A stretch of DNA of 64,000 bases from contig CAMBCF010000004.1 of the NCBI GenBank assembly GCA_945864585.1, positions 762-64,761 of the forward strand, given 5' to 3'. The position numbers and the translations under genes were made by a program. The DNA comes from Bordetella parapertussis. GTDB taxonomy: Bacteria; Pseudomonadota; Gammaproteobacteria; Burkholderiales; SG8-41. Under the pieces are notes generated by a model. It was not told the DNA's origin, ran no database searches, and worked only from the letters and a program-made list of their open reading frames with translations. Positions 9,559 to 25,130 of this stretch are shown in pieces (positions within the stretch are counted from its first letter, which is position 1; every line of letters starts with the position of its first letter).

Positions 9559-10920
9559 TCAGACGGACACGCTACGCGCGGTGCGCATGGTCACGAATTC
9601 TTCGGCGCCCGTGGGATGAATGCCTATTGTCGCATCGAACTGCGCCTTGGTGGCGCCGCATTTGAGCGCTACCGCAAAGCCCTGGATGATTTCGCCAGCC
9701 TCGGCCCCAACCATATGTGCGCCCAACACGCGATCCGTAGCGCGCTCCACCACCAGCTTCATGAAAACGCGTTCCGGGCTACCGGAGAGCGTTGCTTTAA
9801 GCGGACGGAAGTGGGCGATATACACATCAATCACCCTGCCGCGCGCAAGCGCCTGCTCCTCACCCAGCCCGACAGTAGCTATATTGGGATGACTGAACAC
9901 GGCGGTCGGCACCTGCTCGTAATCCATGCGGCGGGAAGCGCTGCCAAACAGGTTATGCGCCAGCACCATGCCTTCAGCCAGCGCCACCGGGGTTAGCTGT
10001 ATGCGGTCTATGGCATCACCGATGGCGTAGATCGAGGGGGTGCTGGTACGGAATTCATCATCCACTTTGATCGCGCCATTCTCCGCGAGCAACACACCGG
10101 CCTCTTTGATCCCGATTCCGGCAGTGTTTGGCGCACGCCCGGTCGCATACATGACCAGGTCTGCCTCCTGCTTCGCGCCCGACGCGAAATGCAGCCGTAA
10201 TGCGCCCGCACTGCGCTCTATGCGCTCGATATTTTCCTCGAGCTTCACAGTAACGCCCTTAAGCGTCATTTCTTCCGCCAGGCGTTTTCCAAGATCGTGG
10301 TCGAAACCGCGCAGCAGTTGCGGCCCGCGATATACCAGTGTTGTTTGCGGGCACAGGCCATTAAATATGGAGGCGAACTCCACCGCAATGTAGCCCCCAC
10401 CCACAACCACGATGCGTTGCGGCAGATGCCCCAGGACAAAGGCCTCATTGGAGGTAATGGCGAGTTCGGCGCCGGGAATGCGTGGCACTACCGGCCAGCC
10501 GCCAGTCGCAATCAGTATGTGCTGCGCCGTCATGCGCCGTCCTGCCGCTACGACCGTGTGCGCATCACTCACCACGCCTCGCGCCGCGATAACTTCGACC
10601 CCGGCTTGCTTGAGCAGCATTGCATAAACGCCGTTGAGTCGCGCAATTTCGGTATTCTTGTTGCTGACCAGTGCCGCCCAGTCAAACGGGCTGGCGCCAG
10701 GTTTCCAGCCATAGCCGCGCGCCTCTTCGAAGTCGGACGCAAAGTGGGCCGCGTATGAAAAAAGTTTTTTGGGTATGCACCCCACATTGACGCAGGTGCC
10801 GCCGAGCCGGCTTTCTTCGATCAACGCAACGCGTGCCCCCAAACCGGCTGCTACGCGGCTTGCGCGCACGCCACCCGAACCGCCACCGATGGTAATTAAA
10901 TCGTAATCGTATTGCGTCAT
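9559..10920 (-). CDS. gor: glutathione-disulfide reductase
   Basis: GGGSGG dinucleotide fold, redox-active GGTCVNVGCIPKK and C-terminal HPTGAEEFVTMR. Confidence 0.9.
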   Translation of the reverse strand: MTQYDYDLITIGGGSGGVRASRVAAGLGARVALIEESRLGGTCVNVGCIPKKLFSYAAHFASDFEEARGYGWKPGASPFDWAALVSNKNTEIARLNGVYAMLLKQAGVEVIAARGVVSDAHTVVAAGRRMTAQHILIATGGWPVVPRIPGAELAITSNEAFVLGHLPQRIVVVGGGYIAVEFASIFNGLCPQTTLVYRGPQLLRGFDHDLGKRLAEEMTLKGVTVKLEENIERIERSAGALRLHFASGAKQEADLVMYATGRAPNTAGIGIKEAGVLLAENGAIKVDDEFRTSTPSIYAIGDAIDRIQLTPVALAEGMVLAHNLFGSASRRMDYEQVPTAVFSHPNIATVGLGEEQALARGRVIDVYIAHFRPLKATLSGSPERVFMKLVVERATDRVLGAHMVGAEAGEIIQGFAVALKCGATKAQFDATIGIHPTGAEEFVTMRTARSVSV

Positions 10921-11131: not shown

Positions 11132-13531
11132 ATGCTTACCATCGAATCGACTCCCGCAATGGCAGCCAGGGTGTACCAGACTATGGCCAAAAACCTCAAG
11201 GTAGTGCGACGCCGCCTGGGCAAGCCTCTGACCCTGGCGGACAAGGTGCTGCTCGGACACCTCGACGATCCGCAACGTCAGGACATGCAACCGGGCAAGA
11301 GTTATCTCTTCCTGCGCCCCGACCGCGTCGTTTTTCAGGATGTGCTGGGGCAGACCGGCCTGCTGCAGTTCATGCAGACGCTGCGCAAGCGCGTCGCCGT
11401 GCCGACCACGGTCCACTGCGATCATCTGATCCAGGCCCGGGTCGAGGGCAAGCGGGACTTGCGCGAGTCGCTTGCGGAAAATACCGAGGTCTATGACTTC
11501 CTGCGTGCCGCCTCCGCCAAGTACGGCGCGGGCTTCTGGGGGCCGGGCTCGGGCATCATCCACCAGGTGGTGCTGGAGAACTACGCGTTTCCGGGCACGC
11601 TCATCATCGGCACTGACTCGCATACGCCCAACGCCGGCGGGCTGGGTGCGTGCGCGGTCGGCGTGGGCGGCGCCGATGCGGTGGAAACCATCGCTGGTCT
11701 GCCGTGGGAAGTGCTGTATCCGAAACACATCGCCGTCTACTTAACGGGCACATTGAGCGGCTGGACCGCACCCAAGGACGTGATCCTCTACGTCGCGGGT
11801 GCGCTCACAGTGTCCGGCGGCACCAACGCCATCGTCGAATACATAGGCCCCGGCGCGCGCACCATCAGCGCCACCGGCAAGGCCACTATCACCAACATGG
11901 GCGCCGAACTTGGTGCGACCACGTCGATGTTCCCCGCCGACGACCATATGTCGAAATACCTGCGTGCGACCGGCCGTGGCGGGCTGGTGCCGCTGATGGA
12001 AAAGTACATGGAGTTGCTCCAGCCGGATCCGGAAGTTGAAGCCGACCCCGAGAAATACTACGACCGCGTTGTGCGGCTCGACCTGTCGACGCTCGAGCCG
12101 CATGTCGTCGGCCCGCACTCCCCGGATCGCGCACGCCCGATCTCCAAACTCGCCGCCGAGGTGTTTGCCGCGAACAACAAGTTCATCGACCACATTTCGA
12201 GCGCGCTCATTGGCAGTTGCACCAATTCTTCGTACGAAGACATGAGCCGCTCGGCAGACGTTGCGGAACAGGCGAAGGCGCACGGCGTGAAAGCAGCCGT
12301 GCCGTTCCTGGTGACCCCCGGCTCGGAGCAGGTGCGCGCCACTATCGAGCGCGACGGTCAGATGCAGTCTCTAAAAGACATCAACGGCGCGGTGCTCGCG
12401 AACGCCTGCGGTCCGTGCATCGGCCAGTGGCGCAGAGCCAAGGATGTCGCTACCGTGCCCAATACCATCGTCACCTCGTACAACCGTAACTTCCCGGCGC
12501 GCAATGACGGCCAGGCAACCACCATGAACTTCATTGCCAGTCCCGAGATCGTCACTGCGATGGCGCTTGCCGGAAAACTGTCATTCAACCCGCTCACTGA
12601 TATGCTTGCCGCTGCGGACGGCAGGCTGTTCAAGCTGAATGCGCCGAAGACTGCGCCCGAAGTGCCGGCAAAAAATTTCGACCGCGGCCATGCCGAGTAC
12701 ATCGCACCACCGCCTGACGGCAGCCGCGTCAAGCTTACCGTCAACCCCAAGAGCCAGCGGCTGCAACTGATGCAACCGTGGCTCGCATGGGACGGCAAGG
12801 ACTATCTCGACATGCCGGTGCTGCTGAAGACCAAAGGAAAGACCACGACCGATCACATCTCTCCGGCCGGCGTATGGCTGAGCTTACGCGGGCACCTCGA
12901 CAAGTTCAGCGATAACCTGTGTATGGGCGCGATCAATGCCTATACCGGCGAGGCCGGCAAGGTGAAGAACATGCTGAGCGGAGCGACCGGCGAAATGGTC
13001 TCGAAAACCGCACGCCACTACAAGGCAAAGGGCGTAAAGTGGGTGATCGTCGGCGATGCCAACTACGGCGAGGGCAGCAGCCGTGAACACGCCGCGTTGA
13101 GCCCGCGCCTGCTGGGCGGCGTCGCAGTTATCGTGCGCAGCTTCGCGCGCATCCACGAATCGAACCTGAAAAAGCAGGGCCTGCTCGCGCTCACGTTTCA
13201 GAAACCGGAGGATTACGAGCGCCTGCGTGAAGACGACCGTTTGAGCCTGGTCAGACTGAACAGCCTCGCCGCCGGCAAGCCGGTCGAGTGCCGCGTAAAA
13301 CACGCCGACGGCAGGACCGAGACGCTGCAGCTCAATCACACATTCAGCGAACCGCAACTCGAATGGTTCCGCCAGGGTTCGGCGTTGAATCTGTTCCATG
13401 CGGCGGCGAAGAAATCCGCTGCGAAGAAAAAAACCGGCAAGAAGTCTGCCGCGAAGTCCAGCGGTAAGGCGATGAAGAAATCAACAGCGGCGGGGAGAAA
13501 GGCGGGCGCACTGAAGCCCGCTAAAAAGTAA
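11132..13531 (+). CDS. acn: aconitate hydratase, mitochondrial-type, with a C-terminal Lys/Ala-rich extension
   Basis: Motifs RPDRVVFQDVLGQ, IGTDSHTPNAGGLG, GSCTNSSYEDM and NACGPCIGQW (Fe-S ligands). The last 43 aa are AAAKKSAAKKKTGKKSAAKSSGKAMKK.... Confidence 0.9.
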   Translation: MLTIESTPAMAARVYQTMAKNLKVVRRRLGKPLTLADKVLLGHLDDPQRQDMQPGKSYLFLRPDRVVFQDVLGQTGLLQFMQTLRKRVAVPTTVHCDHLIQARVEGKRDLRESLAENTEVYDFLRAASAKYGAGFWGPGSGIIHQVVLENYAFPGTLIIGTDSHTPNAGGLGACAVGVGGADAVETIAGLPWEVLYPKHIAVYLTGTLSGWTAPKDVILYVAGALTVSGGTNAIVEYIGPGARTISATGKATITNMGAELGATTSMFPADDHMSKYLRATGRGGLVPLMEKYMELLQPDPEVEADPEKYYDRVVRLDLSTLEPHVVGPHSPDRARPISKLAAEVFAANNKFIDHISSALIGSCTNSSYEDMSRSADVAEQAKAHGVKAAVPFLVTPGSEQVRATIERDGQMQSLKDINGAVLANACGPCIGQWRRAKDVATVPNTIVTSYNRNFPARNDGQATTMNFIASPEIVTAMALAGKLSFNPLTDMLAAADGRLFKLNAPKTAPEVPAKNFDRGHAEYIAPPPDGSRVKLTVNPKSQRLQLMQPWLAWDGKDYLDMPVLLKTKGKTTTDHISPAGVWLSLRGHLDKFSDNLCMGAINAYTGEAGKVKNMLSGATGEMVSKTARHYKAKGVKWVIVGDANYGEGSSREHAALSPRLLGGVAVIVRSFARIHESNLKKQGLLALTFQKPEDYERLREDDRLSLVRLNSLAAGKPVECRVKHADGRTETLQLNHTFSEPQLEWFRQGSALNLFHAAAKKSAAKKKTGKKSAAKSSGKAMKKSTAAGRKAGALKPAKK

Positions 13532-13589: not shown

Positions 13590-14369
13590 ATGATGCAAAT
13601 CAGTTTCCCCGGTTCAGGCAATCACATCACGCAGGCTCTGCAACGCAACAATTCGGGTAGCGCCCGGCGCCGGTGGACGCCTTGGATCGTGCTGGGCCTT
13701 GTTACAGCAGCCGCAGCATTGTGCATTCCGGTTTCTATCGCGACCACCACACCCGCGACCGGGGACGCCTATGTGTATCGTCTCGTGAACGGCTACAACC
13801 ATGAAACCGTCGGTCACATCCGCCACGAAGTTACCGAAGCGACTATGGCGCAGGGTGCGGTTGTTTCAGTCACGGTGGACAAGCCCTCGCTCGGGCTATC
13901 TCATACCGAAATCTACACTCAGGCGGGGCAGTGGGTGCGCCATCCCCTCGACAACCATGGCATCGCCGTCGATTATGAGTTCACTCCCGCGCTTCCTGTG
14001 TACCTGTCGCCGCTGGTCGCGGGCAAGTCCTGGTCGGTGCGGGTCAACGCGAAGGTCCCGGGTGAAAACACAAACCGCAGCGTGCGTATCGACGGCGAGG
14101 TGCTGGGCAATGAACGCATCCGCATGCCAGCCGGGGAATTCGACACCGTGAAAATCCGTCGCATTATTTATCCCGGCGACGCCGGGGATTTCAAGACCGA
14201 GACGCAAATCGTCGAATTCGACTGGTACGCGCCCATCCTCGGCCGCAGCGTGCGATCCGAAACCCGGTCGAGCTGGCGGACGCAGTCCGGGTGTCGTCGC
14301 GGGTACCGCGACTATCGCGGCGACTGGAATGTTCTCGAACTCACCGAGGCGCACGCGGCAACGCGCTAA
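13590..14369 (+). CDS. hypothetical membrane-anchored protein
   Basis: 259-aa ORF with one N-terminal TM segment (WIVLGLVTAAAALCIPVSIA). No family recognised. Confidence 0.45.
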   Translation: MMQISFPGSGNHITQALQRNNSGSARRRWTPWIVLGLVTAAAALCIPVSIATTTPATGDAYVYRLVNGYNHETVGHIRHEVTEATMAQGAVVSVTVDKPSLGLSHTEIYTQAGQWVRHPLDNHGIAVDYEFTPALPVYLSPLVAGKSWSVRVNAKVPGENTNRSVRIDGEVLGNERIRMPAGEFDTVKIRRIIYPGDAGDFKTETQIVEFDWYAPILGRSVRSETRSSWRTQSGCRRGYRDYRGDWNVLELTEAHAATR

Positions 14370-14371
14370 TT

Positions 14372-14489
14372 CGCGCTCCATTCGGCGGCTGCGCTGCCAA
14401 CCCCAGGTGCGTGAGGATGCACTCGATATTTCATATGCGCGCCAGATAGATGACGCCTTCCTCCTCGACAAGATGGCCGAGGCGGGTCA
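14372..14489 (-). mobile_element. IS91-family (Y2) transposase gene fragment a, internally deleted
   Basis: Minus-strand translation reads LLTRLGHLVEEEGVIYLA joined to IECILTHLGLAAQPP. This matches mid and C-terminal segments of the same family as fragment c. Confidence 0.6.
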
Positions 14490-14595
14490 GGAGCCGTAGG
14501 GCGCAATCCCGATTGCGCCGAATGCGTGCTGCCGATCAAGCACACGGCGCAATAGGACAAGGGAACACTTGAAGCGAAGCATTGCGCCCTGGCCC
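14490..14595 (+). repeat. 106-nt structured repeat, copy 1
   Basis: About 96% identical by eye to 15625..15730, in the same orientation. Contains alternating GGCGCAAT / ATTGCGCC boxes, two of each. Confidence 0.85.
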
Positions 14596-14603
14596 TACGA
14601 ACG

Positions 14604-14681
14604 TCACGCGCCAGCCTTTGCCTCACGCGCGAGATACAGCCAGGTCTCCACCAGGGTAGCGGGGTTGCGCGAAAGTGAGCG
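14604..14681 (-). pseudogene. 3'-terminal fragment of a diverged ppsA-like gene
   Basis: Translates to [24 protein letters not shown]-stop, against [24 protein letters not shown]-stop at the end of ppsA (21467..). Roughly 83% nt identity by eye. Confidence 0.75.
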
Positions 14682-14765
14682 ATAGACGGGTTTTCTATCA
14701 ATCAATAACCGTTCGTTCATACCCCGCTGGAAAAGGCTTGTTCTTGATTTGCCTATCGCCCCGGT

Positions 14766-14794
14766 GATATTCTAGTCAGTACGACTAGAATATC
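14766..14794. promoter_or_regulatory. perfect 12-bp inverted repeat (GATATTCTAGTC n5 GACTAGAATATC), candidate TA operator/promoter
   Basis: Lies about 60 nt upstream of the Phd/YefM-like ORF. The right arm contains the -10-like hexamer TAGAAT. Confidence 0.5.
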
Positions 14795-14852
14795 AAACAG
14801 CAAGGCATCGCCTTCCACCTCGCGTTCCCGCGCGCAATCAGGTTATTGGCCG

Positions 14853-15098
14853 TTGCAGGACGCCAAAGCGCGTTTCAGCGAACTCGTGCGTAAAGCCAGG
14901 AACGAAGGCCCGCAGCACGTTACCCTTCATGGCTGTGAAGAAGTCGTGGTTATCGCCGCTGAGGAATTTAACCGCTTAAGCGGTGATCTAACCGGCGCTG
15001 CGTTGATTGCCGCAGCGCAAGCGTCACCCTATCGTGATATTCGCGATATCAATCTTGCGCCCGCGCGCGTGCAAATGCCTGTACGCAAAGTCAAGCTG
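14853..15098 (+). CDS. Phd/YefM-family antitoxin domain (TTG start; ORF runs on into the toxin remnant to 15155)
   Basis: Reads LQDAKARFSELVRKARNEGPQHVTLHGCEEVVVIAAEEFNRL...PVRKVKL, typical of antitoxins paired with VapC/FitB. No clean ATG, and its own stop codon is lost. Confidence 0.6.
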
Positions 15099-15305
15099 CG
15101 CCCGCTATTCGAGCAAAGAACGCTTGCGGTCAGTGAAGACGTGATGCTCTAGTGCGCTTGCTGGTCGAAGGAGGTCGCAAAGCCGGCATACCTTTTCGCA
15201 GCCCGATCTTATTATCAGGCCACTGCGCTCCATCACGGATTGACCATCGTGTCACGCGATGTAACGGATTACACGCGGGCAGGTGTGCCTGTGTTCAACC
15301 CCTAA
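15099..15305 (+). pseudogene. VapC/FitB-type PIN toxin remnant (5' third deleted, in-frame TAG plus frameshifts)
   Basis: Pieces in three frames: LFEQRTLAVSEDVML, RLLVEGGRKAG, HTFSQPDLII and ATALHHGLTIVSRDVTDYTRAGVPVFNP-stop. The N-terminal catalytic LLDTNV region is absent. Confidence 0.7.
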
Positions 15306-15335
15306 ACTGATGCATTACCCCACGCTTAGGCGTGA

Positions 15336-15383
15336 GTACAAGGGCGGATTAGGCGCGTTTTTTGCGTCGTAACCCGCCCGTAC
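15336..15383. repeat. REP-like imperfect hairpin (GGGCGGaTTA ... TAACCCGCCC family)
   Basis: Same arm motif as the composite element at 18698..18803. Confidence 0.6.
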
Positions 15384-15384
15384 C

Positions 15385-15624
15385 GCTTACCGGCGGCCAA
15401 GCACGTTATCCGCATCAATCAAACCGTTACTGCCAGCCAGACGGAGACGCCCTCCTGTTCGATCGAATGACCGGCGTACGTCAGTAAAATCTTGATTCTT
15501 TTTTGTCGAGCAAGGCTTGTAGCTGTTGGTTACTTGGGGCCGGTGGGACATGGAACACTGGCGCGCCCTCGCCGCCGGTGCGATAGACGTCCAGGCCATG
15601 CAGGTGAATGTTCAGCTTAGCGGC
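15385..15624 (-). mobile_element. IS91-family transposase gene fragment b (HUH-motif region), frameshifted
   Basis: Minus-strand translation reads KLNIHLHGLDVYRTGGEGAPVFHVPPAPSNQQLQALL, then in another frame LTYAGHSIEQEGVSVWLA. The HLH sequence is an HUH-type motif. Confidence 0.6.
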
Positions 15625-15730
15625 GGAGCCGTAGGGCGCAATCCCTATTGCGCCGAATGCGTGTTGCGGATCAAGCACACGGCGCAATAGGACAACGGAA
15701 CACTTGAAGCGAAGCATTGCGCCCTGGCCC
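15625..15730 (+). repeat. 106-nt structured repeat, copy 2
   Basis: Second copy of 14490..14595, with about 4 mismatches by eye. Confidence 0.85.
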
Positions 15731-15903
15731 CATCTCGTCGCGCACTTTTTTCATCGCGCGGCATTCGAGTTCGAATGACTTTCTGAAACTATCGGAGATA
15801 TAACGTGACGCGCCACGGAATCCCAGCATGGAGATGCACGCCGATCATGCGCGCGATAATGAATTCCAGCCGCGCCAGTCCCACGCCTTCATTCGGCAGG
15901 CGG
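15727..15903 (-). pseudogene. two joined internal ppsA fragments
   Basis: 15727..15831 matches ppsA 21943..22047 with about 5 mismatches. 15833..15903 matches ppsA 22285..22355 with about 3 mismatches. 237 nt of ppsA is missing between them. The ORF track shows the shared antisense peptide [19 protein letters not shown] in ORFs 15805.. and 22281... Confidence 0.85.
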
Positions 15904-16014
15904 AAATATTTCTTCCCACTGCACGCGATCATGCGGCAAATCCTTCGCGTGAAACACTATCGCGTTGCTGGTGCCGCCGCGCATGAACACTGCGGGCAGT
16001 TTAAATTGCCTCAT
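15889..16014 (-). pseudogene. 5' stub of a PrpF / methylitaconate-isomerase-family gene
   Basis: An ATG at 16014 is preceded by GGGAGA. It translates to [37 protein letters not shown], a PrpF-like N-terminus, then runs out of frame into the ppsA fragment and stops. Confidence 0.6.
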
Positions 16015-16040
16015 ATAAATTCTCCCTTAAAAACAATTAC

Positions 16041-16628
16041 TTAATTTTTTTGCTGAAGTACCCAACCGGCCAACTGCGCTAGCTCCGCGTCGGACAGTTG
16101 GGCATTCGGCGGCATCGGCGCGGCGCCCCACGCGCCTGCGCCGCCATACTTGATTTTTTTTGTCAGCGCACCGCGGGCGCCGGCGTCGCCCGCGTATTTC
16201 GCCGCCACCTCTTTAAAGGAGGGACCTACCACACGCTTGTCGATCTGATGACACGCCATGCAGGCATTCGTGGTCAGCAGGCGGGCTACCGGATCGCCGG
16301 ATAGCGCCGGCGTCGTGGCATCGGCCGCAGGCGGCGCGCTGTCGCGGTTGTAATACGTGGCGAGGTATTCAAGTATCGGTGCGATTTCCTCGGGCGCAAT
16401 CGGCGCGCCGCGCTCAATCATGTTTTTGATACTGAATTCCCATTCGCCGCGCGAAAGCTTGGTGCGCGTGATGTGCGTGGCATCATGGCACAGCACACAG
16501 CGCGTGATGGTGATCTCCACGCCCTTGCCGGGAGCCAGTGTTTTGGAAGGCGCGCGTTCGTCCTGCGCTTGCAGCGGCGCGAGACCCGCCGCCAGACAAA
16601 TGCCCGCCAGCGCGGCGCGCAGGCGCAT
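16041..16628 (-). CDS. sorB: dihaem c-type cytochrome, sulfite dehydrogenase cytochrome subunit-like
   Basis: Signal peptide and two CxxCH motifs (CVLCH, CMACH). ATGA start/stop overlap with the upstream molybdoenzyme gene. Confidence 0.8.
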   Translation of the reverse strand: MRLRAALAGICLAAGLAPLQAQDERAPSKTLAPGKGVEITITRCVLCHDATHITRTKLSRGEWEFSIKNMIERGAPIAPEEIAPILEYLATYYNRDSAPPAADATTPALSGDPVARLLTTNACMACHQIDKRVVGPSFKEVAAKYAGDAGARGALTKKIKYGGAGAWGAAPMPPNAQLSDAELAQLAGWVLQQKN

Positions 16629-17917
16629 CAGGCTTCAACCATAAAGCCGACGCGGTGGATGCCATTCCAGAAATACCCCAGCGGATTCCACGCGGTCACA
16701 ATCGGTTGCACATTGCCGCGGCTGTCGGTGGCGCGCGCCAGCACGGTGACAAAGCCCGGCCCGCGCGGGGTGTACTCGTGCGCGAACGTGCGCCAGGCAT
16801 ACGGATCGCCACTGCGGTCAAGCGATGCGCGCTGCCAGCTTGCACCCTCGTCAAACGATACGTCCACGCGGCTGATATTGCCCTCGCCCACCCACGCGCG
16901 GCCTTCCACCTGCACCGCCTTTTCCGCCTTGAACAGGGCATTGGGCGCGGGAGTGGTAATCATCGATTTCACTGGCCACGCCTCCGTCACCAGTGCATCC
17001 GGCGGCAATTTTTCGCCCGGCCTCACGGCGTGGCGTGGTATGCGGTAGCTGGTGTCCATGTAGGTGCCCTTGAACGGCGCGTCCAGCACGGTCAGCGTAT
17101 GCAACCACTTGGTCGAGGCGGAAGCCGCCCAGCCGGGCACGACCAGACGCAGCGGATAACCGTGGATTTTCGGCAGCGGTCCGTCGTTCATGCCGAACAC
17201 GATCATCGTGCCCGTATCCAGGGCTTTCGCCATGGGAATCGAACGAATAATCGGCGCGGCCGTTGCCACCACGCCGAAATCGCCGCCCTGTCCGGCGACG
17301 TGCGCCGCGCCCGCCTTCAGGCCGGCGGCCTGCAACACATCGCGCAACAGCACGCCGTTCCACACCGGGCAACCCATGCCGCCGGTCGCCTGCCACGGCG
17401 TGCCGCTTGGGCGCGGATTGAAGGCCGTGCGTCCGGCGCCCGCGCACTCGAGCATGGCCTGCATGCGCACGACGCGAAACGACTTGCGAAGCTCTTCTAC
17501 GCCATAACTGACCTCGCGCTCGGTCAAACCCTTGATCGTCAAACGGTGTTGCGCGATATCGATGTCGGGCGTCAGCAAATTGTTGCGAACGAACATGCGG
17601 TCATTGGGCGTCACCGCGAAATGATGGTGTTCCGCAGTTACGCTGGCGGTCAACGGTCGTTCGGAATGCATCGGCATGCCGGAGAATTTTTCCGCCATCA
17701 CCGTGCTGTTGGGAATCGCGCCTGCGGGTTCGGGCGGCGGCGTGGGCGCATTCTGTGCAAGCGCCGGGGTTGACACCCCTGCCGTGGCCGCTACGGCTGC
17801 GGCGCCTGCGCCGACGACACGCTCCAAAAAATCGCGCCGTGAGATTAAATCGGCGGGTGTGGGGGCGGGTGGGCGGGCGAGTGAAGGGTTCATGGTGACG
17901 GATCCTGTGTGAATCAC
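16628..17917 (-). CDS. sorA: sulfite-oxidase-family molybdopterin oxidoreductase (sulfite dehydrogenase catalytic subunit)
   Basis: Tat leader SRRDFLERVVGAGAAAVA, Mo-ligand cysteine context MLECAGAGR and a C-terminal dimerisation-domain-like region. Confidence 0.85.
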   Translation of the reverse strand: MIHTGSVTMNPSLARPPAPTPADLISRRDFLERVVGAGAAAVAATAGVSTPALAQNAPTPPPEPAGAIPNSTVMAEKFSGMPMHSERPLTASVTAEHHHFAVTPNDRMFVRNNLLTPDIDIAQHRLTIKGLTEREVSYGVEELRKSFRVVRMQAMLECAGAGRTAFNPRPSGTPWQATGGMGCPVWNGVLLRDVLQAAGLKAGAAHVAGQGGDFGVVATAAPIIRSIPMAKALDTGTMIVFGMNDGPLPKIHGYPLRLVVPGWAASASTKWLHTLTVLDAPFKGTYMDTSYRIPRHAVRPGEKLPPDALVTEAWPVKSMITTPAPNALFKAEKAVQVEGRAWVGEGNISRVDVSFDEGASWQRASLDRSGDPYAWRTFAHEYTPRGPGFVTVLARATDSRGNVQPIVTAWNPLGYFWNGIHRVGFMVEA

Positions 17918-18255
17918 TATTGTGTGTGGATAGAAATTTTATACACTATTTTTCACCAGTCAGCAATTTATCCCCCGCCCGGCGAACAGTCAAATGCGTG
18001 AATTTTCACCAAGCCTCGATGTTATTTTGAAAATATTGCCGCGCGAAACGTTCCGTAGCGGCTGATTTGCGGCCCATCGACGCATTAACACGAGCACCAG
18101 CCGAGCCCACCCATCAACCCTGGCAAAAACCAGTCGGAATCCGGGAATCAAGCCGCCTGAAAAAGATCAACCCGCCGCGCCGGCGCGCGTGGCGGCGGCT
18201 GCGCGCACAACCCCAGATGCGTGAGAATGCGCTCAATCACCGAAGGTTCTTCGAT

Positions 18256-18278
18256 CCCTGTCCTGAGCCTGTCGAAGG
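18256..18278 (+). repeat. 23-nt insert CCTGTCCTGAGCCTGTCGAAGGG
   Basis: Breaks the transposase frame between KIIAV and IEEPSV. Reverse complement of the 18594..18616 element with one mismatch. Confidence 0.75.
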
Positions 18279-18593
18279 GACTGCGATGATCTTCAATTTG
18301 CCACCACACGCTTGGCAGTGCTCAATATCGATGTCGTACACGCGTTTGAGCAAGCGCGCCCAACTCATGCGCACCGGCGCGCTGTGGGCATGCGCATGCG
18401 TGCAACCGCCTTCGCCTGCTGTTGTACTCGGCACCGGCGCCGGCACCACCGTCGAACGTAACTTCGCATTCGGCGCCAGTACCCCATGAAAGCGTATGAG
18501 ATGCAAGCGCGGGCGCGGCACCAGTGCGGCGAGCCGTTGCATGAACTCCAGCGGCGACATCACGATGTGGGTGGCGCCGTTGCGGTAAGGTGT

Positions 18594-18616
18594 CCCTTCG
18601 ACAAGCTCAGGACAGG
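18594..18616 (+). repeat. 23-nt insert CCCTTCGACAAGCTCAGGACAGG (inverted partner)
   Basis: Breaks the transposase frame between VVLKLK and TPYRNG. Confidence 0.75.
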
Positions 18617-18697: not shown

Positions 18698-18803
18698 ACG
18701 TAGCGTGTAGGGCGGGTTAGGTGCGTTCTTGCGCCGTAACCCGCCGCCTCGCTTGCCCATGCACACCGGCCGGCGGGTTACCCCCGGATCAAGTCCGGGG
18801 TAA
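18698..18803. repeat. composite REP-like element (two GGCGGGTTA...TAACCCGCC hairpins inside an outer GTAGGGCGGGTTA / TAACCCGCCCTAC inverted repeat)
   Basis: Hairpins lie at 18701..18735 and 18762..18799. The second has about 15-nt arms with one bulged C. Confidence 0.7.
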
Positions 18804-18809
18804 CCCGCC

Positions 18810-19250
18810 CTACGTGCTTCTAACTGGCTTCCATCCTTGTGGATTCGTAAAATCTGCACCACACTTCCAGCACATTGGATCGTCATGCCGCAAAGGAGCG
18901 GTGCAGTCTGTTCGGGGGCAGGTGGCGTTGGGTCTCGTGGCATCGGCAATACTTTTCGCTTCCGGAGATGCAGAGGGTGCCGCAGCAGCTAACGAGCCTC
19001 CGCTTTCAACCAGCGGCCCCTGATTCCGTGGGACTTGCGTGTAACTTTCAAATTTGGTTCTTAAAATTACTAACTCTTGGCTTGTAATAAGTAACGCATG
19101 GTTTGTTTTCTTTGCTTCATGAATTAACTGATCTAGCTTACTTTTCGTGCCAAAAATAGCAAACGGCAATATGAACCAAAGAATCGCTAAAACAATTGAA
19201 AACAGCACGATAATGACAGTGAAAGAACCCAATGCGTGCGTATCGGTCAT
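18810..19250 (-). CDS. small membrane protein with a C-terminal Cys-rich (zinc-ribbon-like) tail
   Basis: 146-aa ORF with TM segment FTVIIVLFSIVLAILWFILPFAIFG, a coiled segment, then CPRTDC...CWKCGADF. The 5' half is visibly AT-richer than the 3' half, and the 3' end runs into the REP element, so the true C-terminus is uncertain. Confidence 0.4.
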   Translation of the reverse strand: MTDTHALGSFTVIIVLFSIVLAILWFILPFAIFGTKSKLDQLIHEAKKTNHALLITSQELVILRTKFESYTQVPRNQGPLVESGGSLAAAAPSASPEAKSIADATRPNATCPRTDCTAPLRHDDPMCWKCGADFTNPQGWKPVRST

Positions 19251-19481
19251 CTGGGAACTTCTTGTTTGTTAGAAATCCACAGTTCATGGGTGCGTCATCG
19301 TTTATGGGTGCATCGCACGCAGGGTAGAGTAGACAGGCGCAAGCCTGATCTACCCTACCCTTCACATTGGCTAATCTGGGTGCGTGTAATCGCTTCGCGT
19401 AAGCCCTGAAACATCGTGCCATTCACACCATTCGCACCGCTGCTGCGCCTGTCTTGCGAGGCCAGAACTCTAAGCCCGCGG

Positions 19482-19904
19482 CTATCGCAGCATCGTCGGC
19501 TGCAATGATTGCCCGCCGGTGTCGTAACCGACTCGGAAATAAGACGGTTTGCCCGCTACAAGTGTCGCTGATCGCTCAAGCAATCCGGCGAGTGCGGCCA
19601 AGCAATTTGGCTCGATTCCTAGAATTACTTCACCAGCGGGAATGTGCAGCGTTACCTTTTCTGAAGTTGATAGCCGCGCTGCGAGTTGCCCGTTGACGAA
19701 TATTTTTGTGTCGCAGGCAGCGCCCGACCATCCGCTATCGCGTATCACAAGCACCGGCGCTGTGTTTGCGCCTGGCTGTTTGAAAAGCAGATGTTTTGAT
19801 GGTGGCACTGGCGTAGCTTCGCTGCTCGGCACTGGCGTTGTGGCGCAGCCCACAAAAAATAGAAGAATAGAAATCAATGTATATCGCATAGTGTTCGTCC
19901 TCAT
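19482..19904 (-). CDS. putative lipoprotein (DUF2846-like pattern)
   Basis: Lipobox LLFFVGC after MRYTLISI. The mature part has VLVIRD...IFVNGQLAARL...LHIPAGEVIL, reminiscent of DUF2846 lipoproteins. Confidence 0.5.
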   Translation of the reverse strand: MRTNTMRYTLISILLFFVGCATTPVPSSEATPVPPSKHLLFKQPGANTAPVLVIRDSGWSGAACDTKIFVNGQLAARLSTSEKVTLHIPAGEVILGIEPNCLAALAGLLERSATLVAGKPSYFRVGYDTGGQSLQPTMLR

Positions 19905-20086
19905 TTTTCGAGTGCCAAACGCTTGCCGCGCTGGACAAGCTCGCTTTCAACTCTCGTGATGCGCGCGTTGCATAAAATCGCAATTTCGTCTGTGCCTGGC
20001 TCACGGCCAGCCATTGCCGAACGCCAGAATGAATAATAATCCTTTGTTATAGATGCGGCTAGTGGATTACGCGCGGATCGCTTCAC
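19901..20086 (-). CDS. hypothetical small protein
   Basis: 61-aa ORF overlapping the lipoprotein start by 4 nt. No family recognised, and the 5' end abuts a transposase fragment. Confidence 0.25.
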   Translation of the reverse strand: MKRSARNPLAASITKDYYSFWRSAMAGREPGTDEIAILCNARITRVESELVQRGKRLALEK

Positions 20087-20089
20087 CGC

Positions 20090-20165
20090 GGCGATGTAAA
20101 AGACTTGCGCGTGCAGCGGTCAACATCAATGTCGAGCACACGCTTGAGCAGTCGCGCCCATGTCA
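20090..20165 (-). mobile_element. IS91-family transposase gene fragment d
   Basis: Minus-strand translation MTWARLLKRVLDIDVDRCTRK parallels MSWARLLKRVYDIDIEHCQACGG of fragment c. Confidence 0.55.
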
Positions 20166-20420
20166 TCGCGACCGCCTTACAAAATAATTCACTGCGACCA
20201 TACCACTATCATTTACATCCTCGACTCCAGCATCAACTTGCTTCTGAATGTCTTCCCGTCCGCCTTGAAGCATCTTCTCGATAAGTTGTTTATGCTCCCT
20301 CTCGAACCACTCGAATAGAGAAAGTTCGTTTGCGTCTAACCCACGCAACTCGATTAAATACTTTAAAAAGTGGTTCCTAAACTCTCCTTGAAGATGAAGC
20401 GGAATGTTTTTCTTGTCCAA
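20163..20420 (-). CDS. hypothetical protein, AT-richer than surroundings (TTG start, 3' end fused to transposase fragment)
   Basis: 85-aa ORF reading MDKKNIPLHLQGEFRNHFLKYLIELRGLD.... No family recognised and probably truncated. Confidence 0.3.
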   Translation of the reverse strand: MDKKNIPLHLQGEFRNHFLKYLIELRGLDANELSLFEWFEREHKQLIEKMLQGGREDIQKQVDAGVEDVNDSGMVAVNYFVRRSR

Positions 20421-20560
20421 TTGTCCACATCCTTCACTATCATGAACCGCGTTGGGTGCTAGCTTTGATCGGCATCACAGCGCAGCCCCGCGTGCAAGCT
20501 GAAGCCGTGGGCGTTGTTGCAGCGTTGTTGTGTGACCGGCGCCTGGCGGCGAAAGCGATA

Positions 20561-20965
20561 CTACCCAGCAAGAAATTCCTGCATGGACAATGCGATTGCG
20601 GGCACTGCCTTTTGAAGCTTCCGGTCTTCCGTAATCAACGGGACATTCAGGCTTTGCGCCAGCGCAACGTATTGCGCGTCGTAGCCGGTTATGGCGTATT
20701 CCGCCGCTACGGCAAGCACCGTATCCATCACCACTTCGCACTGCGCAACCTTGATGAAGCGCTCGACATGGCTCAGCAAGGCCCGGCACTGCACGAACGT
20801 CAGCACTTCGCGCCGCTGATAGGTTGTCAGCACGTTCACTGTTTCATGCAAGCACAGCGCTGCGGTACGCCAATCGGCATCTTTTCCGCGCAGCTTCTGG
20901 ATAAGCGGTGACTGGTCGCATTTGATCAATGAGTAGATCAGGATATTGGCGTCAACGACAATCAT
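20561..20965 (-). CDS. vapC: PIN-domain ribonuclease toxin VapC
   Basis: N-terminus MIVVDANILIY, TGYDAQYVALA and PLITEDRKL supply the PIN acidic residues. 4-nt overlap with the upstream antitoxin gene. Confidence 0.85.
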   Translation of the reverse strand: MIVVDANILIYSLIKCDQSPLIQKLRGKDADWRTAALCLHETVNVLTTYQRREVLTFVQCRALLSHVERFIKVAQCEVVMDTVLAVAAEYAITGYDAQYVALAQSLNVPLITEDRKLQKAVPAIALSMQEFLAG

Positions 20966-21213
20966 TTCGACGGGATTGTTTTGTTCAAATCCCGGGTCTT
21001 GCGGATGACAGAAACAACATTACCACGTGTGAGCGGCTTTACCGGTTTGAGCGGATCGGGCAGCAGATCGGCTGCATCCCTTGCAGGAGCAGCCAATGCC
21101 TGTTCCAGAAACGCCAGAGCTTGCCGAGTCATGGAGCGATGATAGTGTGCGGCTTCTGCCTTAAGCCTACGGTGCAATTCAGGTGGAAAGTCTTTAATCA
21201 ATAAGCCCGGCAT
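20962..21213 (-). CDS. vapB: ribbon-helix-helix (Arc/FitA-like) antitoxin VapB
   Basis: The 83-aa ORF has an RHH signature at its N-terminus, MPGLLIKDFPPELHRRLKAEAAHYHRSMTRQALAFLEQAL. Confidence 0.8.
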   Translation of the reverse strand: MPGLLIKDFPPELHRRLKAEAAHYHRSMTRQALAFLEQALAAPARDAADLLPDPLKPVKPLTRGNVVSVIRKTRDLNKTIPSK

Positions 21214-21466: not shown

Positions 21467-23854
21467 TCACGCCCCAGCCTTTACTGCACGCGCGAGATAC
21501 AGCCAGGTCTCCACCACCGTATCCGGGTTAAGCGAAAGACTTTCAATGCCCTCCTCCACCAGCCACTGCGCAAGATCCGGATGATCCGACGGCCCCTGCC
21601 CGCAGATGCCCACATATTTGCCGGCCTTGCGGCAGGCTTGGATTGCCAGATGCAGCATGTGCTTCACCGCCGGGTCACGTTCATCAAAGCCCTCGGCTAT
21701 GAGACCGGAATCACGATCCAGCGCCAGTGTCATTTGCGTCATGTCGTTGGAGCCGATGGAAAAGCCGTCGAAGTGTTCGAGGAATTGATCGGCGAGCACC
21801 GCGTTGGATGGAATTTCGCACATCATGATGATGCGCAGGCCGTTGCCGCCGCGCTTTAAGCCGTTGGCCGCGAGTAGCTCCAGCACCTGTTTTGCTTCGG
21901 TCACGGTACGCACGAATGGCACCATGATTTCGACGTTGGTCAGCCCCATCTCGTCGCGCACTTTTTTCATCGCACGGCATTCGAGTTCGAATGACTTTCT
22001 GAAACTGTCGGAAATATAACGCGACGCGCCACGGAAACCCAGCATGGGGTTTTCTTCATGCGGCTCGTATTTGGCGCCTCCGGTGAGGCTGGAATACTCG
22101 TTGGACTTGAAATCTGACAGCCGCACGATCACCGGCTTGGGCCAAAATGCCGCGCCCAGGGTCGCAACACCTTCAACAAGTTTCTCGACGTAAAACGTCA
22201 CCGGGTCGGCATAGCCGGCGCTGTGCCCTTCGACCGCGGTTTTCAAATCCGCCGCAAGATCGGGATACGCCAGCACTGCTTTGGGATGCACGCCGATCAT
22301 GCGCGCGATAATGAATTCCAGCCGCGCCAGCCCCACGCCTTCATTGGGCAGACGGCTGAATTCAAAAGCCAGTTCCGGGTTGCCGACGTTCATGGTTATT
22401 TTCACCGGCGGCTTGGGCATGGCGCTGAGCGACAAGTCGATAATCTCAACTTCCAATTTGCCGCGATAAACAAAACCGGTGTCGCCTTCGGCGCACGACA
22501 CGGTAACGTCTTTGCCGTCTTTCAGCACCTGCGTCGCATCGCCACAGCCCACCACTGCAGGCACCCCGAGCTCGCGCGCGATGATGGCCGCGTGACAGGT
22601 GCGTCCGCCGCGATTGGTGACGATGGCCGAGGCGCGCTTCATCACCGGTTCCCAATCGGGGTCGGTCATGTCGGTGACCAGCACATCGCCCTCGCGCACG
22701 CGGTCCATTTCCGCAGCGCTGCTTACCAGCCGCACCGGGCCGCTACCGACACGCTGACCAATCGCGCGGCCGGTTGCCAGCACTTCGGAGCGCTGCTGCA
22801 AACGATAGCGCCGCAGCGTATCGACATTTTCACTAGCCTTCACCGTTTCGGGACGCGCCTGCAGAATATAAAGCTGGCCATCGACACCGCCGCGGCCCCA
22901 CTCGATATCCATCGGACGCTGATAGTGCTTTTCAATAATCAATGCGTAACGCGCCAGCGTCTCGACTTCGGCATCGGTAATCGAGAATTTACGGCGATCC
23001 GCTTCCGGCACCGGCTCGGTCTTTACCGAACGACCCACTTCGCGCGACGTGTCATACACCATACGCACCGCTTTGGAACCCAGGCCGCGCCGCAAAATTG
23101 CCGGACGATTATTATTGAGCCCGCGTTTATAAACATAAAACTCATCCGGATTCACCTGCCCTTGAACGATGGTTTCACCCAGGCCATAAGCGGAAGTAAT
23201 GAGCACCACTTGGTCGAATCCTGATTCAGTATCAATGGTGAACATCACGCCGCTTGCACCGAGATCACTGCGCACCATGCGTTGCACCCCTGCCGACAAC
23301 GCTACTTCGGCGTGCTGGAATCCTTTATGCACACGATACGAAATCGCGCGGTCGTTATACAACGACGCAAACACCTGCTTGACAGCCTCAAGCAGATTAT
23401 CGAGGCCGTGTACATTAAGAAACGTTTCCTGCTGGCCGGCGAATGAGGCATCCGGCAAATCCTCCGCCGTGGCCGAAGAGCGCACCGCGAACGTGACGTC
23501 GGACCCTGCTGTCAGCACCAGTTGGTTGTAGGCATCACTTACTGCCGCCAGCAACGTGTCTGAAAACGGCTGCGCAACGATCCAGCCGCGTATGTCTTTG
23601 CCCGCCGCCGCCAACGCATTAACGTCATCGACACGCAGCATTGCCAGCCGTTGTTCTATGCGCTTATCCAAATCGCCCTGCGCAAGAAAATCCCGATACG
23701 CCGCGGCGGTTGTGGCAAACCCGCCTGGCACGCGTACACCCGCGCCGGAAAGATGGCCGATCATCTCGCCCAGCGATGCATTTTTTCCGCCGACTGTGCC
23801 CACATCACTGATGCGTAAAGTGGCTAGGTCGAGCACATAGGGTGGCGCGGTCAT
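21467..23854 (-). CDS. ppsA: phosphoenolpyruvate synthase
   Basis: 795 aa with N-terminal ATP-grasp ([11 protein letters not shown]), phosphohistidine domain ([15 protein letters not shown]) and a C-terminal PEP-utilising TIM barrel. Confidence 0.97.
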
Positions 23855-23964
23855 AAGCAGGTTCCGGTAAAGTGCATGGTGGGGTGCGGCGAAAGGCGGT
23901 ATATTACAGAAAATTATCGCGCCGCAACATATTTAACATCCAGCACTCAATATTTCGCCCTCTC

Positions 23965-24792
23965 ATGACCACTTATCGTCGCAGCGCCTTCTTTGTATCT
24001 GACCGCACCGCCATCACCGCCGAGATGCTCGGTCACAGCCTGCTCACGCAGTTCGATGGCCTGAGTTTGCACGAGACGACGCTGCCCTTTATCGACAGCG
24101 TAGCCAAAGCGCAGGAGGCAGTGCAAACAATCAACACCGCCGCCGCTGCCGACGGCGCGCGCCCGATCATTATCAGCACCCTGGCAAACACCGAAATCGC
24201 CGCGGAGTTCGGCAAAGCCAATGCGTTATTTATGGATTGCTTTCAAATCTTTATCGCACCGCTCGAAACCGAACTCGGCGCAAGAGCATCGCACGCGATC
24301 GGGCGCACCCATAATGTCAACGATATCGTCAACTACTACAAACGCATGGAATCGGTGAACTACGCGCTGGCGCACGACGATGGGGTATCGACGCGCGATC
24401 TGGCCGAAGCCGATATCATTCTGGTGGGCGTATCACGCTGCGGAAAAACGCCCACCTGTCTATATATGTCAATGCAGTTTGGCGTGCGTGCGGCGAACTA
24501 CCCGCTGATACCGGAAGATTTCTCCAGTCACCTGCTGCCCGCCACACTGCGTCCGTTGCGCGGCAAACTCTACGGCCTGACCATCACACCTGCGCGCCTG
24601 CAGCGCATACGCAGCGAGCGCCGGCCCAACAGCACCTACGCTGAATTGAAAAACTGCGACTACGAAATCCGCGAAGCGGAATCATTGATGCGCCACGAGA
24701 ACATTCCGTTTCTCGACGCCACCAGCAAATCGGTGGAAGAACTCGCCACCACCATCATGCAGCAGGCAAAGCTGGAGCGGCGGATTTACTGA
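23965..24792 (+). CDS. ppsR: PEP synthase regulatory protein (bifunctional kinase/pyrophosphorylase, DUF299)
   Basis: From the ATG at 23965 it reads [27 protein letters not shown], with P-loop GVSRCGKTP. Divergent from ppsA. The 31 upstream codons of the ORF were rejected. Confidence 0.9.
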
Positions 24793-24900: not shown

Positions 24901-25130
24901 ATGCGCACTACACTGGCAATAGATGATGACGTTCTGACTGCGGTCAAAAGACTTGCGGCCCGGCAAAAAAAACCGTTGGCAAGGTGGTATCCGAACTTGC
25001 ACGCCAGTCCCTGCGTCCCGCAGCGGCTTCCGGAAAGCTCCGTAACGGTGTTCCACTGCTCCCGGTTAATGCCAACGCAAGCCCGGTGACGCTGGCAGTT
25101 GTCATCGCGCTGCGAGACGAATCGCCGTGA
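24901..25130 (+). pseudogene. vapB: VapB-type antitoxin gene with a frameshift in an A8 tract
   Basis: Reads MRTTLAIDDDVLTAVKRLAARQKK, then the A8 run (24965..24972), then in another frame VGKVVSELARQSLRP...RNGVPLLP...VIALRDESP-stop. The stop overlaps the vapC GTG (GTGA). One extra A would restore a 76-aa ORF. Confidence 0.8.

Follow-up and report, generated by a model that had tools for sequence, protein, structure and literature searches.

A mosaic of decayed ppsA, prpF and toxin-antitoxin fragments with REP doublets and ISCR-like transposase remnants beside the sorAB operon

We analyzed a 64-kb window (the whole stretch of DNA under study, 64,000 nt of contig CAMBCF010000004.1, with a G+C content of 59%) and in particular the mosaic at 14372-16014, where pieces of the ppsA gene, the 5' end of a prpF gene, transposase shards and a dead toxin-antitoxin (TA) locus follow one another. 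We ran a self-BLAST of positions 14300-16100 against the whole window. The first-pass annotation had described the segment as a gene graveyard of decayed fragments, and this was borne out: each of its sequence observations was reproduced, with coordinates to the base, so that its observation is confirmed in full and its interpretation is partly right. Read along the minus strand, the present order is prpF (codons 1-37), ppsA nt 1500-1570, ppsA nt 1808-1912, a repetitive extragenic palindrome (REP) doublet, shard S2, a dead Phd-VapC module, a third ppsA piece (ppsA'), a second REP doublet and shard S1, as listed here by coordinate.

14372-16014: flagged mosaic
14499-14372, minus strand: S1, transposase shard in two sub-pieces (tblastn against the L213 reference, E 3.5e-8; C-terminal match to P0006/P0107)
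14490-14598: REP doublet of REPIN type, copy w1 (96.2% identical to w2; nested hairpin z = -4.2)
14604-14690, minus strand: ppsA', a ppsA 3' end with the last ~28 codons and the stop (gene nt ~2305-2388)
14748-15152, plus strand: TA promoter/operator region (palindrome 14765-14795) and Phd/YefM antitoxin open reading frame (ORF) (Pfam PF02604, E 9.3e-10)
15100-15307, plus strand: dead VapC/PIN toxin, C-terminal third, in three reading frames ('...ATALHHGLTIVSRDVTDYTRAGVPVFNP*')
15624-15374, minus strand: S2, transposase shard from the HUH-motif region to mid-transposase (tblastn against L213, summed E 3.4e-10; against ISCR2, E 0.02)
15625-15730: REP doublet of REPIN type, copy w2, whose outer end lacks its last 3 nt (TAC) at the junction to ppsA nt 1912
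15727-15831, minus strand: ppsA piece matching resident ppsA 21943-22047 (gene nt 1808-1912), 95.2% over 105 nt
15833-15903, minus strand: ppsA piece matching resident ppsA 22285-22355 (gene nt 1500-1570), 95.8% over 71 nt
15904-16040, minus strand: prpF stub with its native upstream region, ribosome-binding site (RBS) and 37 codons (coding 16014->15904), fused out of frame to ppsA nt 1500

We then searched for the same arrangement in other assemblies. The entire mosaic was found gap-free at 99.86-99.93% identity in two MEGAHIT assemblies of other samples (ENA ERZ27280197, k141_1706860, and ERZ27280196, k141_3174512), and the Logan assembly of another run (ERR4405442) has the same arrangement, gap-free, over 15849-17379 only, a stretch that spans the sorB-prpF-ppsA junction. 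Since it recurs gap-free at 99.9% in three other assemblies, the mosaic is genuine and not a chimera. The repeats that it holds (106 nt at 96%, and 105 and 71 nt at 95%) all fall below the assembly k-mer of 141, and as no repeat reaches this word size a chimera is very unlikely.

The ppsA pieces fall into two identity classes, as had been noted earlier. For the 3' end, judged by eye to be ~83% identical to the resident gene, BLAST returned a significant match (14604-14675 against resident 21467-21538, 86.1% over 72 nt, E 1e-18, stop included), with protein-level homology reaching ~14690; the ~95% estimated for the two internal segments agrees with the values listed above. The internal pieces differ from the resident ppsA by 5 mismatches (15727-15831) and 3 mismatches (15833-15903), all 8 of them synonymous and at third positions, with 57 of 57 codons unchanged (dS, the synonymous divergence, ~0.19; ~5% overall difference). 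In gene numbering the fragments carry 1503C, 1509G, 1524A, 1818A, 1833A, 1842C, 1848T and 1881C at the sites that differ. As synonymous changes make up 24% of the possible substitutions in these stretches, the probability of 8 out of 8 is 1e-5 for random changes and 5e-4 for a resident under selection compared with a neutral fragment. Such a pattern identifies the donor as a distinct functional allele and not as the resident copy decayed neutrally; it was either another functional ppsA allele or a former resident allele since replaced. In the form given, the earlier proposal that the pieces were copied recently from the resident ppsA, 6 kb off, is not supported. By the same measure the internal fragment spent less than ~25% of the divergence time without function; its breakup was recent, and the internal pieces are nearer to the resident ppsA than to any relative's ppsA that we recovered. 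In ppsA', the tail LAREAKAGA* is typical of close homologs (120 PpsA homolog tails) and the stretch SLSRNPATLV is changed at residues invariant in the 120 homologs, so that this piece is older or comes from a more distant gene. Every ppsA piece keeps the order of the gene and points the same way. One or two partial ppsA copies, since eroded, can account for all of them, and the phrase "three pieces stitched together" suggests too many events. The codon-position comparison is a cheap way to separate a copy taken from a neighbor and then decayed from one imported from another functional allele, and scars of this kind can preserve the fossil of another ppsA allele.

The prpF start codon lies 27 nt past the sorB stop. 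The stub was described earlier as an RBS and 37 codons of a PrpF-family gene fused out of frame to ppsA, and its identity was settled by the Pfam PrpF profile, which it matches at positions 1-35 of 371 (E 2.5e-7; 30.4 bits, cut-off 27), the full domain being missing as the gene is cut at codon 37. In a related locus (L133), whose SorB is ~69% identical, sorAB is followed by three genes and then by a prpF with an 84% aa-identical N-terminus and homologous upstream sequence. Since the L133 prpF lies downstream of sorAB with the same upstream sequence, the stub is in its native place beside sorAB and was broken at codon 37. The L133 contig ends inside prpF, and a protein search with prpF gave short N-terminal fragments only.

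To characterize the 106-nt repeat, we compared its two copies (14490-14595 and 15625-15730; 96.2% over 106 nt, E 4e-45 by self-BLAST) and scanned other genomes for its core motif. The general layout is GTAG-GGCGCAAT-CCCn-ATTGCGCC, a spacer, then GGCGCAAT-(27-nt loop)-ATTGCGCC...CTAC; in w1 it reads GTAG (14496-14499), GGCGCAAT-CCCG-ATTGCGCC, spacer, GGCGCAAT-[27-nt loop]-ATTGCGCC-CT(GGCCCT)AC, and its outer CTAC end lies 5 nt past the stop of the ppsA' fragment. The GTAG start (GTAGGGCGCAAT) occurs at 14496 and 15631, and CTAC stands at the far end of w1 and of related copies. The doublet folds with -31 to -33 kcal/mol and its nested hairpin has z = -3.8 to -4.2. A GTAG tetranucleotide by a palindrome is a hallmark of REPs (PMC3733652), and a REPIN consists of two inverted REPs around a spacer (PMC3337134, PMC3116915). 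When 185,579 species genomes were scanned for the pattern GGCGCAAT...ATTGCGCC...GGCGCAAT, at least 119 loci emerged, in Chloroflexota, Alpha-, Beta- and Gammaproteobacteria and others. Among the matches listed, the closest relatives lie in a betaproteobacterial metagenome-assembled genome (MAG), CAMATZ01 (labelled Bordetella parapertussis), at 6 loci or more; one of them (L044) is an almost full-length copy with 87% identity, and the other loci there have the simple GTAG...CTAC doublet or the big-loop unit alone. The same doublet architecture is found in L017, L014, L104 and L044. Unlike the CAMATZ01 copies, w1 and w2 both have 6 nt duplicated at their outer end (GCCCTG|GCCCTA), a feature that places w1 and w2 in the same sub-lineage.

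Within the window the doublet occurs twice, both times inside the mosaic, and it was not found in further contigs of the metagenomes concerned, ~27 kb in all. Essentially no IS91 sequence was seen in the 119 loci with the motif, among the matches listed, and no such repeat was found at the other copies of the transposase lineage discussed below (L125-L128, L213); for these two reasons together the repeat does not represent a transposon end. An Rfam scan of 13.5-21.5 kb (E <= 1) gave no match, so that it is no known RNA either. Both repeat-plus-shard regions had no blastn match in 72,556 plasmids. The 106-nt repeat, taken earlier for part of an IS91 element, is instead a GTAG-tagged REP doublet of REPIN type that is independent of ISCR, transposase-free in the related MAG and with a motif present in many phyla. 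A translated match that ran from S2 into the doublet ('RRVKRDEAASGAITLIQRFGS') was discarded as a resemblance at the junction only, REPs elsewhere having no transposase. Separately, palindromic units built on GGCGCAAT/ATTGCGCC, mostly as GTAG-tagged doublets, are multicopy in MAGs of Chloroflexota, Alphaproteobacteria, Acidobacteriota and others (L006-L124), with more than 20 loci in one Chloroflexia MAG among the matches listed; the pair is a very widely shared REP core sequence.

The shards that adjoin the repeats belong to a larger set: at least six IS91-family shards, every one on the minus strand, lie in 14.3-21.5 kb. Besides S1 and S2 these are the following.

18774-18151, with a downstream stretch to 17930, minus strand: S3, the best-preserved remnant (Pfam Y2_Tnp; E 6e-62 to P0006)
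20178->20020, minus strand: S4, 'MTWARLLKRVLDIDVDRC' (E 3e-6)
20551->20465, minus strand: S5, 'CNNAHGFSLHAGLRCDAD' (E 1e-9)
21406-21353, minus strand: S6, weak, 'SDQRSKLERL*RYVT', ~60 nt downstream of the resident ppsA stop

These are remnants of ISCR-like IS91-family (HUH/Y2) elements and not active elements. S3 comprises the C-terminal 173 codons (Pfam PF04986 Y2_Tnp, 27.4 bits against a cut-off of 20.9; 4437 database homologs) with a native stop at ~18151, then ~220 nt to a putative ISCR-type oriIS end ('...AAAATTTCTATCCAC') at ~17930, 13 nt upstream of the sorA ORF. This end presumably matches the published ISCR oriIS consensus. Its downstream region aligns to the ends of three other copies ('...TTTCTATCCAC' here, '...TTCCTATACCC' in the others), and the sequence that follows it, where a target tetranucleotide would stand next to oriIS, is ACAC and not GTTC/CTTG. 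Pfam searches with the short shard peptides left S1 and S2 undetected, and it was a more complete copy from another metagenome (L213), taken as the lineage reference, that made both significant; the earlier assignment of two shards to the IS91 family, each adjoining a copy of the 106-nt repeat, is thereby upheld (E-values listed above). In S1 a first piece (14499->14430) reads 'LRLLTRLGHLVEEEGVIYLAR' (mid-transposase) and is fused directly to the C-terminal 'IECILTHLGLAAQPP' (14427->14383), with ~200 codons lost in between; the shard is cut off beside the stop of a DUF3108-like gene (14369), and 14383-14427 has 84% nt identity to S3 18193-18237. S2 reads 'GSAAKLNIHLHGL..DVYRTGGEGAPVFH..APSNQQLQALL..LLTYAGHSIEQEGV', with a stop, frameshifts and small deletions, and is more decayed than S1; a hairpin that it includes (15341-15378) is 87% identical to S3 18709-18745. 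The S4/S5 region (20020-20551) has 87% nt identity to L128. S1 and S2 have lost the oriIS end, and the upstream parts of all shards are deleted. The nearest plasmid relative of the shards is ISCR2, with 51% aa identity over 216 aa. No intact transposase gene (~400-500 aa with an N-terminal zinc-binding domain) was found, the longest shard having 173 codons, and no match to the N-terminal domain occurs in the window.

Three further points concern the transposase lineage itself. S3 holds two 23-nt insertions (18257-18279 and 18594-18616; CCTGTCCTGAGCTTGTCGAAGGG and CCCTTCGACAGGCTCAGGACAGG on the minus strand) that its homologous copies L128 and L125 do not have; they are mutual inverted repeats with one mismatch, bracket 314 nt of colinear, otherwise unbroken transposase core and cost no transposase bases, and no other copy was found in the window or in 211 other loci. 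In L213 (3006-4090; also in L125-L128) the HUH-region ORF ends in a TGA that overlaps the ATG of the Y2-domain ORF ('...LDPIT*' / 'MAPLQAAS...') where ISCR2 is continuous ('DDPMTPLLG'), and several database ORFs begin at that Met; the split could be a shared frameshift, and the pile-up of starts is possibly an artefact of a match length that seems capped at ~1.7x the query. The idea that the lineage consists mainly of 5'-truncated C-terminal ORFs (the best 120 matches were all <=237 aa) was withdrawn, the longest match listed being ~1.7x the query in three protein searches (237/137, 538/317 and 98/56), which suggests an upper bound on match length in these searches; the truncated copies seen in context (L125-L128, L213) are real but a biased sample.

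The chromosomal setting of the shards in the window is given by the following genes.

9559-10920, minus strand: lpd
11132-13531, plus strand: aconitase gene
13590-14369, plus strand: DUF3108-like gene
16041-16628, minus strand: sorB (cytochrome c)
16628-17917, minus strand: sorA (molybdopterin oxidoreductase)
20561-21213, minus strand: FitA/PIN toxin-antitoxin pair, intact
21467-23854, minus strand: resident ppsA, intact, 795 aa (Pfam PPDK_N, PEP-utilizers, PEP-utilizers_C)
23872-24792: ppsR

Between sorA and the FitA/PIN pair lie ~3.5 kb with few credible genes. Three relatives (L211, L212 and L216), whose PpsA is 94%, 89% and 89% identical to the resident protein, have the order ppsR | ppsA-pyrG-kdsA-eno-ftsB-folD. 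In the window the lpxB-rnhB-GT-egtB-spoU-ppsR-ppsA block is conserved up to the ppsA stop codon, with S6 ~60 nt beyond, and neither pyrG nor what follows it in the relatives occurs anywhere in the 64 kb. As synteny stops at the ppsA stop, the 7 kb at 14.4-21.5 kb join two blocks that are not adjacent in the relatives. The region is an example, from an uncultured betaproteobacterium, of ISCR-type rolling-circle elements located where chromosomal synteny breaks, and it adjoins the sulfite dehydrogenase operon sorAB.

The TA locus within the mosaic is dead, as described earlier: the Phd/YefM antitoxin domain has no upstream start and the toxin is a frameshifted PIN C-terminus. The sole in-frame start of the antitoxin ORF (14853-15152) is TTG 14853, which lies past a conserved Trp, so that the N-terminus is probably lost; the reconstructed toxin peptide matches the PIN profile at positions 88-111 of 120 (E 0.001; 20.1 bits, below the cut-off of 23.6). 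Three PIN-type loci occur within 11 kb (the intact FitA-like/PIN pair at 20561-21213, a PIN gene at 25127-25561 and the dead Phd-VapC at 14748-15307), and the intact pair is located between shards S6 and S5.

We also inspected composition and small ORFs around the mosaic. No clear island signal was seen in base composition apart from a lower G+C at 19-20.5 kb (47-53% at 19000-20500, against 59% for the window). On the minus strand between S3 and S4, the small ORFs 18810-19250 (weak zinc-ribbon match) and 19482-19904 (weak DUF2846 match) are probably foreign cargo. ORFs of 47-140 aa called in public assemblies (18067-18489 on the plus strand; 14366-14701, 15481-15717 and 15789-15932 on the minus strand) cross the REP doublets or run antisense to transposase remnants and are almost certainly spurious; in 18067-18489, the first 38 codons are conserved in CAMATZ01 solely through overlap with the ISCR end. 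The 41-, 47-, 78- and 111-aa gene calls that public assemblies place here are spurious likewise, and 14372-16014 is due for annotation as pseudogenes and repeats and not as small ORFs.

The junctions between the pieces share only 1-4 nt, which points to illegitimate joining. At prpF|ppsA (15903/15904) the overlap is 1-2 nt, or perhaps CTGCC, should the ancestral prpF have been like the one in L133. At the internal ppsA junction (...GCATC-T-CCATGC...), where 237 nt missing and 1-2 nt of homology had been reported, the gap is real (~235-237 nt), with CC(C) microhomology and one base changed or added. The junction of ppsA nt 1912 with w2 shows the microhomology with the repeat end that had been pointed out, as GGGC/GCCC over 4 nt and not GCCCC over 5, and the last three bases of the REP are gone; it can be derived from a w1-type "ppsA stop + 5 nt + REP" by a single GGGC-mediated deletion. 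Both REP|transposase junctions continue with GGCTCC, from w2 into ~codon 28 of the reference ('FGSAA') and from w1 into ~codon 77 ('LRLLT'), and the w2 junction is in register with ~30 nt of transposase gene that are ~67% similar to the REP arm.

From these elements we consider, with moderate confidence, that 14372-16014 is the left end of a 7-kb decayed ISCR-like zone (14.4-21.5 kb), formed as a one-ended-transposition array and then trimmed by microhomology deletions. In IS91-family elements, transposition starts at oriIS downstream of the transposase gene and often misses terIS, so that upstream DNA is co-mobilised (PMC13181058). Here, ISCR copies would once have sat downstream of a ppsA with a REP doublet just past its stop codon; rolling-circle transposition from oriIS, with terIS missed, would have copied the upstream DNA (the REP doublet and 3' ppsA); one ppsA-REP unit would have inserted into prpF, downstream of sorAB, at codon 37; and short-homology deletions of 1-4 nt and slippage would then have trimmed the units, probably with help from the hairpins of the REP doublets. 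In both cases the cargo is found on the transposase-upstream (terIS) side, with sorAB-prpF'-ppsA''-REP before S2 and TA-ppsA'-REP before S1, and rolling-circle one-ended transposition is plausible because all six shards are co-oriented and the captured fragments are on that side. The earlier view of illegitimate recombination linked to rolling-circle transposition therefore stands for the illegitimate part, given the 1-4 nt junctions, and for the IS91-family remnants, and its rolling-circle link is plausible. We infer the order of events, as well as one-ended transposition and not some other duplication as the carrier of the ppsA-REP modules. Outward promoters are present at the ends of ISCR1 (PMC6218425); the S3 ISCR end may likewise drive transcription of sorAB, or sorAB may have been delivered next to it, and the operon may itself be cargo in the array. 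Nothing in the region is functional now, except possibly outward transcription from the ISCR end by sorA.

Several observations weigh against this account of an array. S1 and S2 are only ~60% identical in their overlap while the REP doublets that adjoin them are 96% identical, so the two ppsA-REP-ISCR modules are not simple sister copies; this mismatch means that the model needs REP gene conversion, REP x REP recombination, independent junctions or reused microhomology. The shared GGCTCC can be read either way, as common ancestry or as reused microhomology. No terIS was identified and no intact ISCR of the lineage was recovered, so one-ended transposition by this lineage is proposed by analogy only. 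A donor locus with ppsA followed by a REP doublet was not found, and the three relatives have ppsA-pyrG without a REP. S6 is weak (tblastn E ~0.3-0.5) and rests mainly on 81% nt identity over 43 nt to L128 4772-4814 (E 1e-5).

Among the alternatives, the one that fares best is that a partial second ppsA (nt 1500-end + REP + S1) eroded in place and that a REP-S2-TA-ppsA' circle entered later by Campbell-type REP x REP recombination. It predicts exactly the order ppsA''-REP-S2-TA-ppsA'-REP-S1 and explains both the REPs that are 96% alike between differing flanks and the mismatched flank ages, with a young ppsA by the old S2 and an old ppsA by the better-preserved S1; circular intermediates are known in the IS91 family (PMC13181058). 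The 106 nt at 96% would however be a short RecA substrate, the "ages" of such small pieces rest on few sites, and two prior ppsA-REP-ISCR arrangements are needed anyway, which makes it a variant of the favored array and not an alternative to ISCR. As a variant we regard it as about as good an explanation; as the separate history set out here it is possible but unlikely.

Somewhat less probable still is template switching of the kind described for microhomology-mediated break-induced replication or fork stalling and template switching (MMBIR/FoSTeS), in which short stretches of the resident ppsA, 6 kb distant, were recently copied straight into a break near prpF and a foreign ppsA end arrived in a separate, older event. 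The 1-4 nt microhomologies agree with it, as do the 1-nt filler or substitution at one junction, the short colinear pieces in the orientation of a resident gene just 6 kb off, and their closeness to that gene relative to the other ppsA found. What speaks against it is the codon pattern: neutral drift predicts mostly non-synonymous or first- and second-position changes, and 8 of 8 synonymous differences are not expected (P ~5e-4 or less). A dS of ~0.19 indicates a distinct allele as the source, so that template switching is tenable only if homologous recombination afterwards replaced the resident allele.

We hold it to be highly improbable that the repeat is the terminal structure (terIS or oriIS) of an IS91-family element and the repeat-plus-shard units truncated IS ends. 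Subterminal palindromes do occur at IS91-family ends (PMC13181058), and transposase-derived sequence touches both repeat copies. Yet the repeat adjoins internal transposase codons (~28 and ~77 of the reference) and no element end, the apparent oriIS end of S3 looks different, the repeat has REPIN architecture (GTAG and palindrome, inverted doublet), the other lineage copies do not carry it, and the at least 119 motif loci have essentially no IS91 sequence. An assembly chimera, with junctions absent from every real molecule, is scarcely credible: although every dataset is a short-read metagenome assembly, two independent MEGAHIT assemblies agree gap-free, the independent Logan assembly crosses sorB-prpF-ppsA, and the repeats are too short or too diverged to act as the k = 141 words from which misjoins arise.

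A coupling of the two kinds of element deserves mention, though we think it quite doubtful: the REP hairpin or its GTAG/CTAC ends might offer an IS91-family HUH transposase a surrogate termination or strand-transfer site, or might attract ISCR as a preferred target. This would be cross-talk between REPIN/RAYT and ISCR, both of them HUH systems that work on single-stranded DNA (RAYT standing for REP-associated tyrosine transposase). If true, it would explain why both REPs sit exactly between ppsA- and transposase-derived DNA, why the same 'CTACGGCTCC' end is present at both REP|transposase junctions, and why the w2 junction is in register with the transposase stretch that resembles the REP arm.

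We finally compared the locus with known systems. The TA module resembles type II Phd/YefM-VapC(PIN) systems in its antitoxin domain, operator-like palindrome and PIN C-terminal motif directly downstream, but two thirds of the toxin are missing at the N-terminus, the rest of it is frameshifted and the usual start of the antitoxin is gone, unlike the intact PIN modules nearby at 20561-21213 and 25127-25561. The junctions are those of microhomology-mediated deletion and illegitimate recombination in pseudogene decay, with 1-4 nt of homology, deletions of ~235 nt in ppsA and ~480 nt to the REP, and hairpin-forming repeats at breakpoints; this is a generic process and there is no distinctive difference.

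Like the REPINs and GTAG-REPs mobilised by RAYT (TnpA-REP), the doublets have GTAG followed by a GC-rich palindrome and two inverted REPs around a spacer, lie a few nt past a stop codon, are multicopy in a related genome and come in solo and doublet variants. They differ in numbering two copies in 64 kb, both in the scrapyard, in a 27-nt loop insertion in the second REP, and in that w2 is cut by a deletion junction, so that w2 at least is not a clean REPIN insertion. A RAYT gene was not seen either, though no search aimed at one was made.

The closest parallel to the zone as a whole is the ISCR1/ISCR2 arrays (IS91). Here neither a terIS nor an intact master copy was found, all copies are dead fragments on an environmental betaproteobacterial chromosome and not on a resistance plasmid or integron, and the cargo is housekeeping or metabolic DNA (ppsA, prpF, sorAB) with TA modules and not resistance genes. 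The likenesses are an HUH/Y2 transposase (51% to ISCR2 over 216 aa), a putative oriIS-type end ~220 nt past the stop, several same-orientation copies with captured unrelated DNA on the terIS side, the commonness of truncated copies, and an element end directly upstream of a cargo operon (sorAB), as with the outward promoters of ISCR1 (PMC6218425). Current understanding of IS91/ISCR and REP biology is unchanged by the locus, unless the REP-ISCR coupling is mechanistic; it is an ordinary but legible ISCR/IS91 scar with REP doublets and dead cargo, and what it chiefly adds is the recognition of the repeat as a REP, the set of six shards in one orientation together with the synteny break at ppsA, and the ppsA scraps as fossils of a different functional allele.

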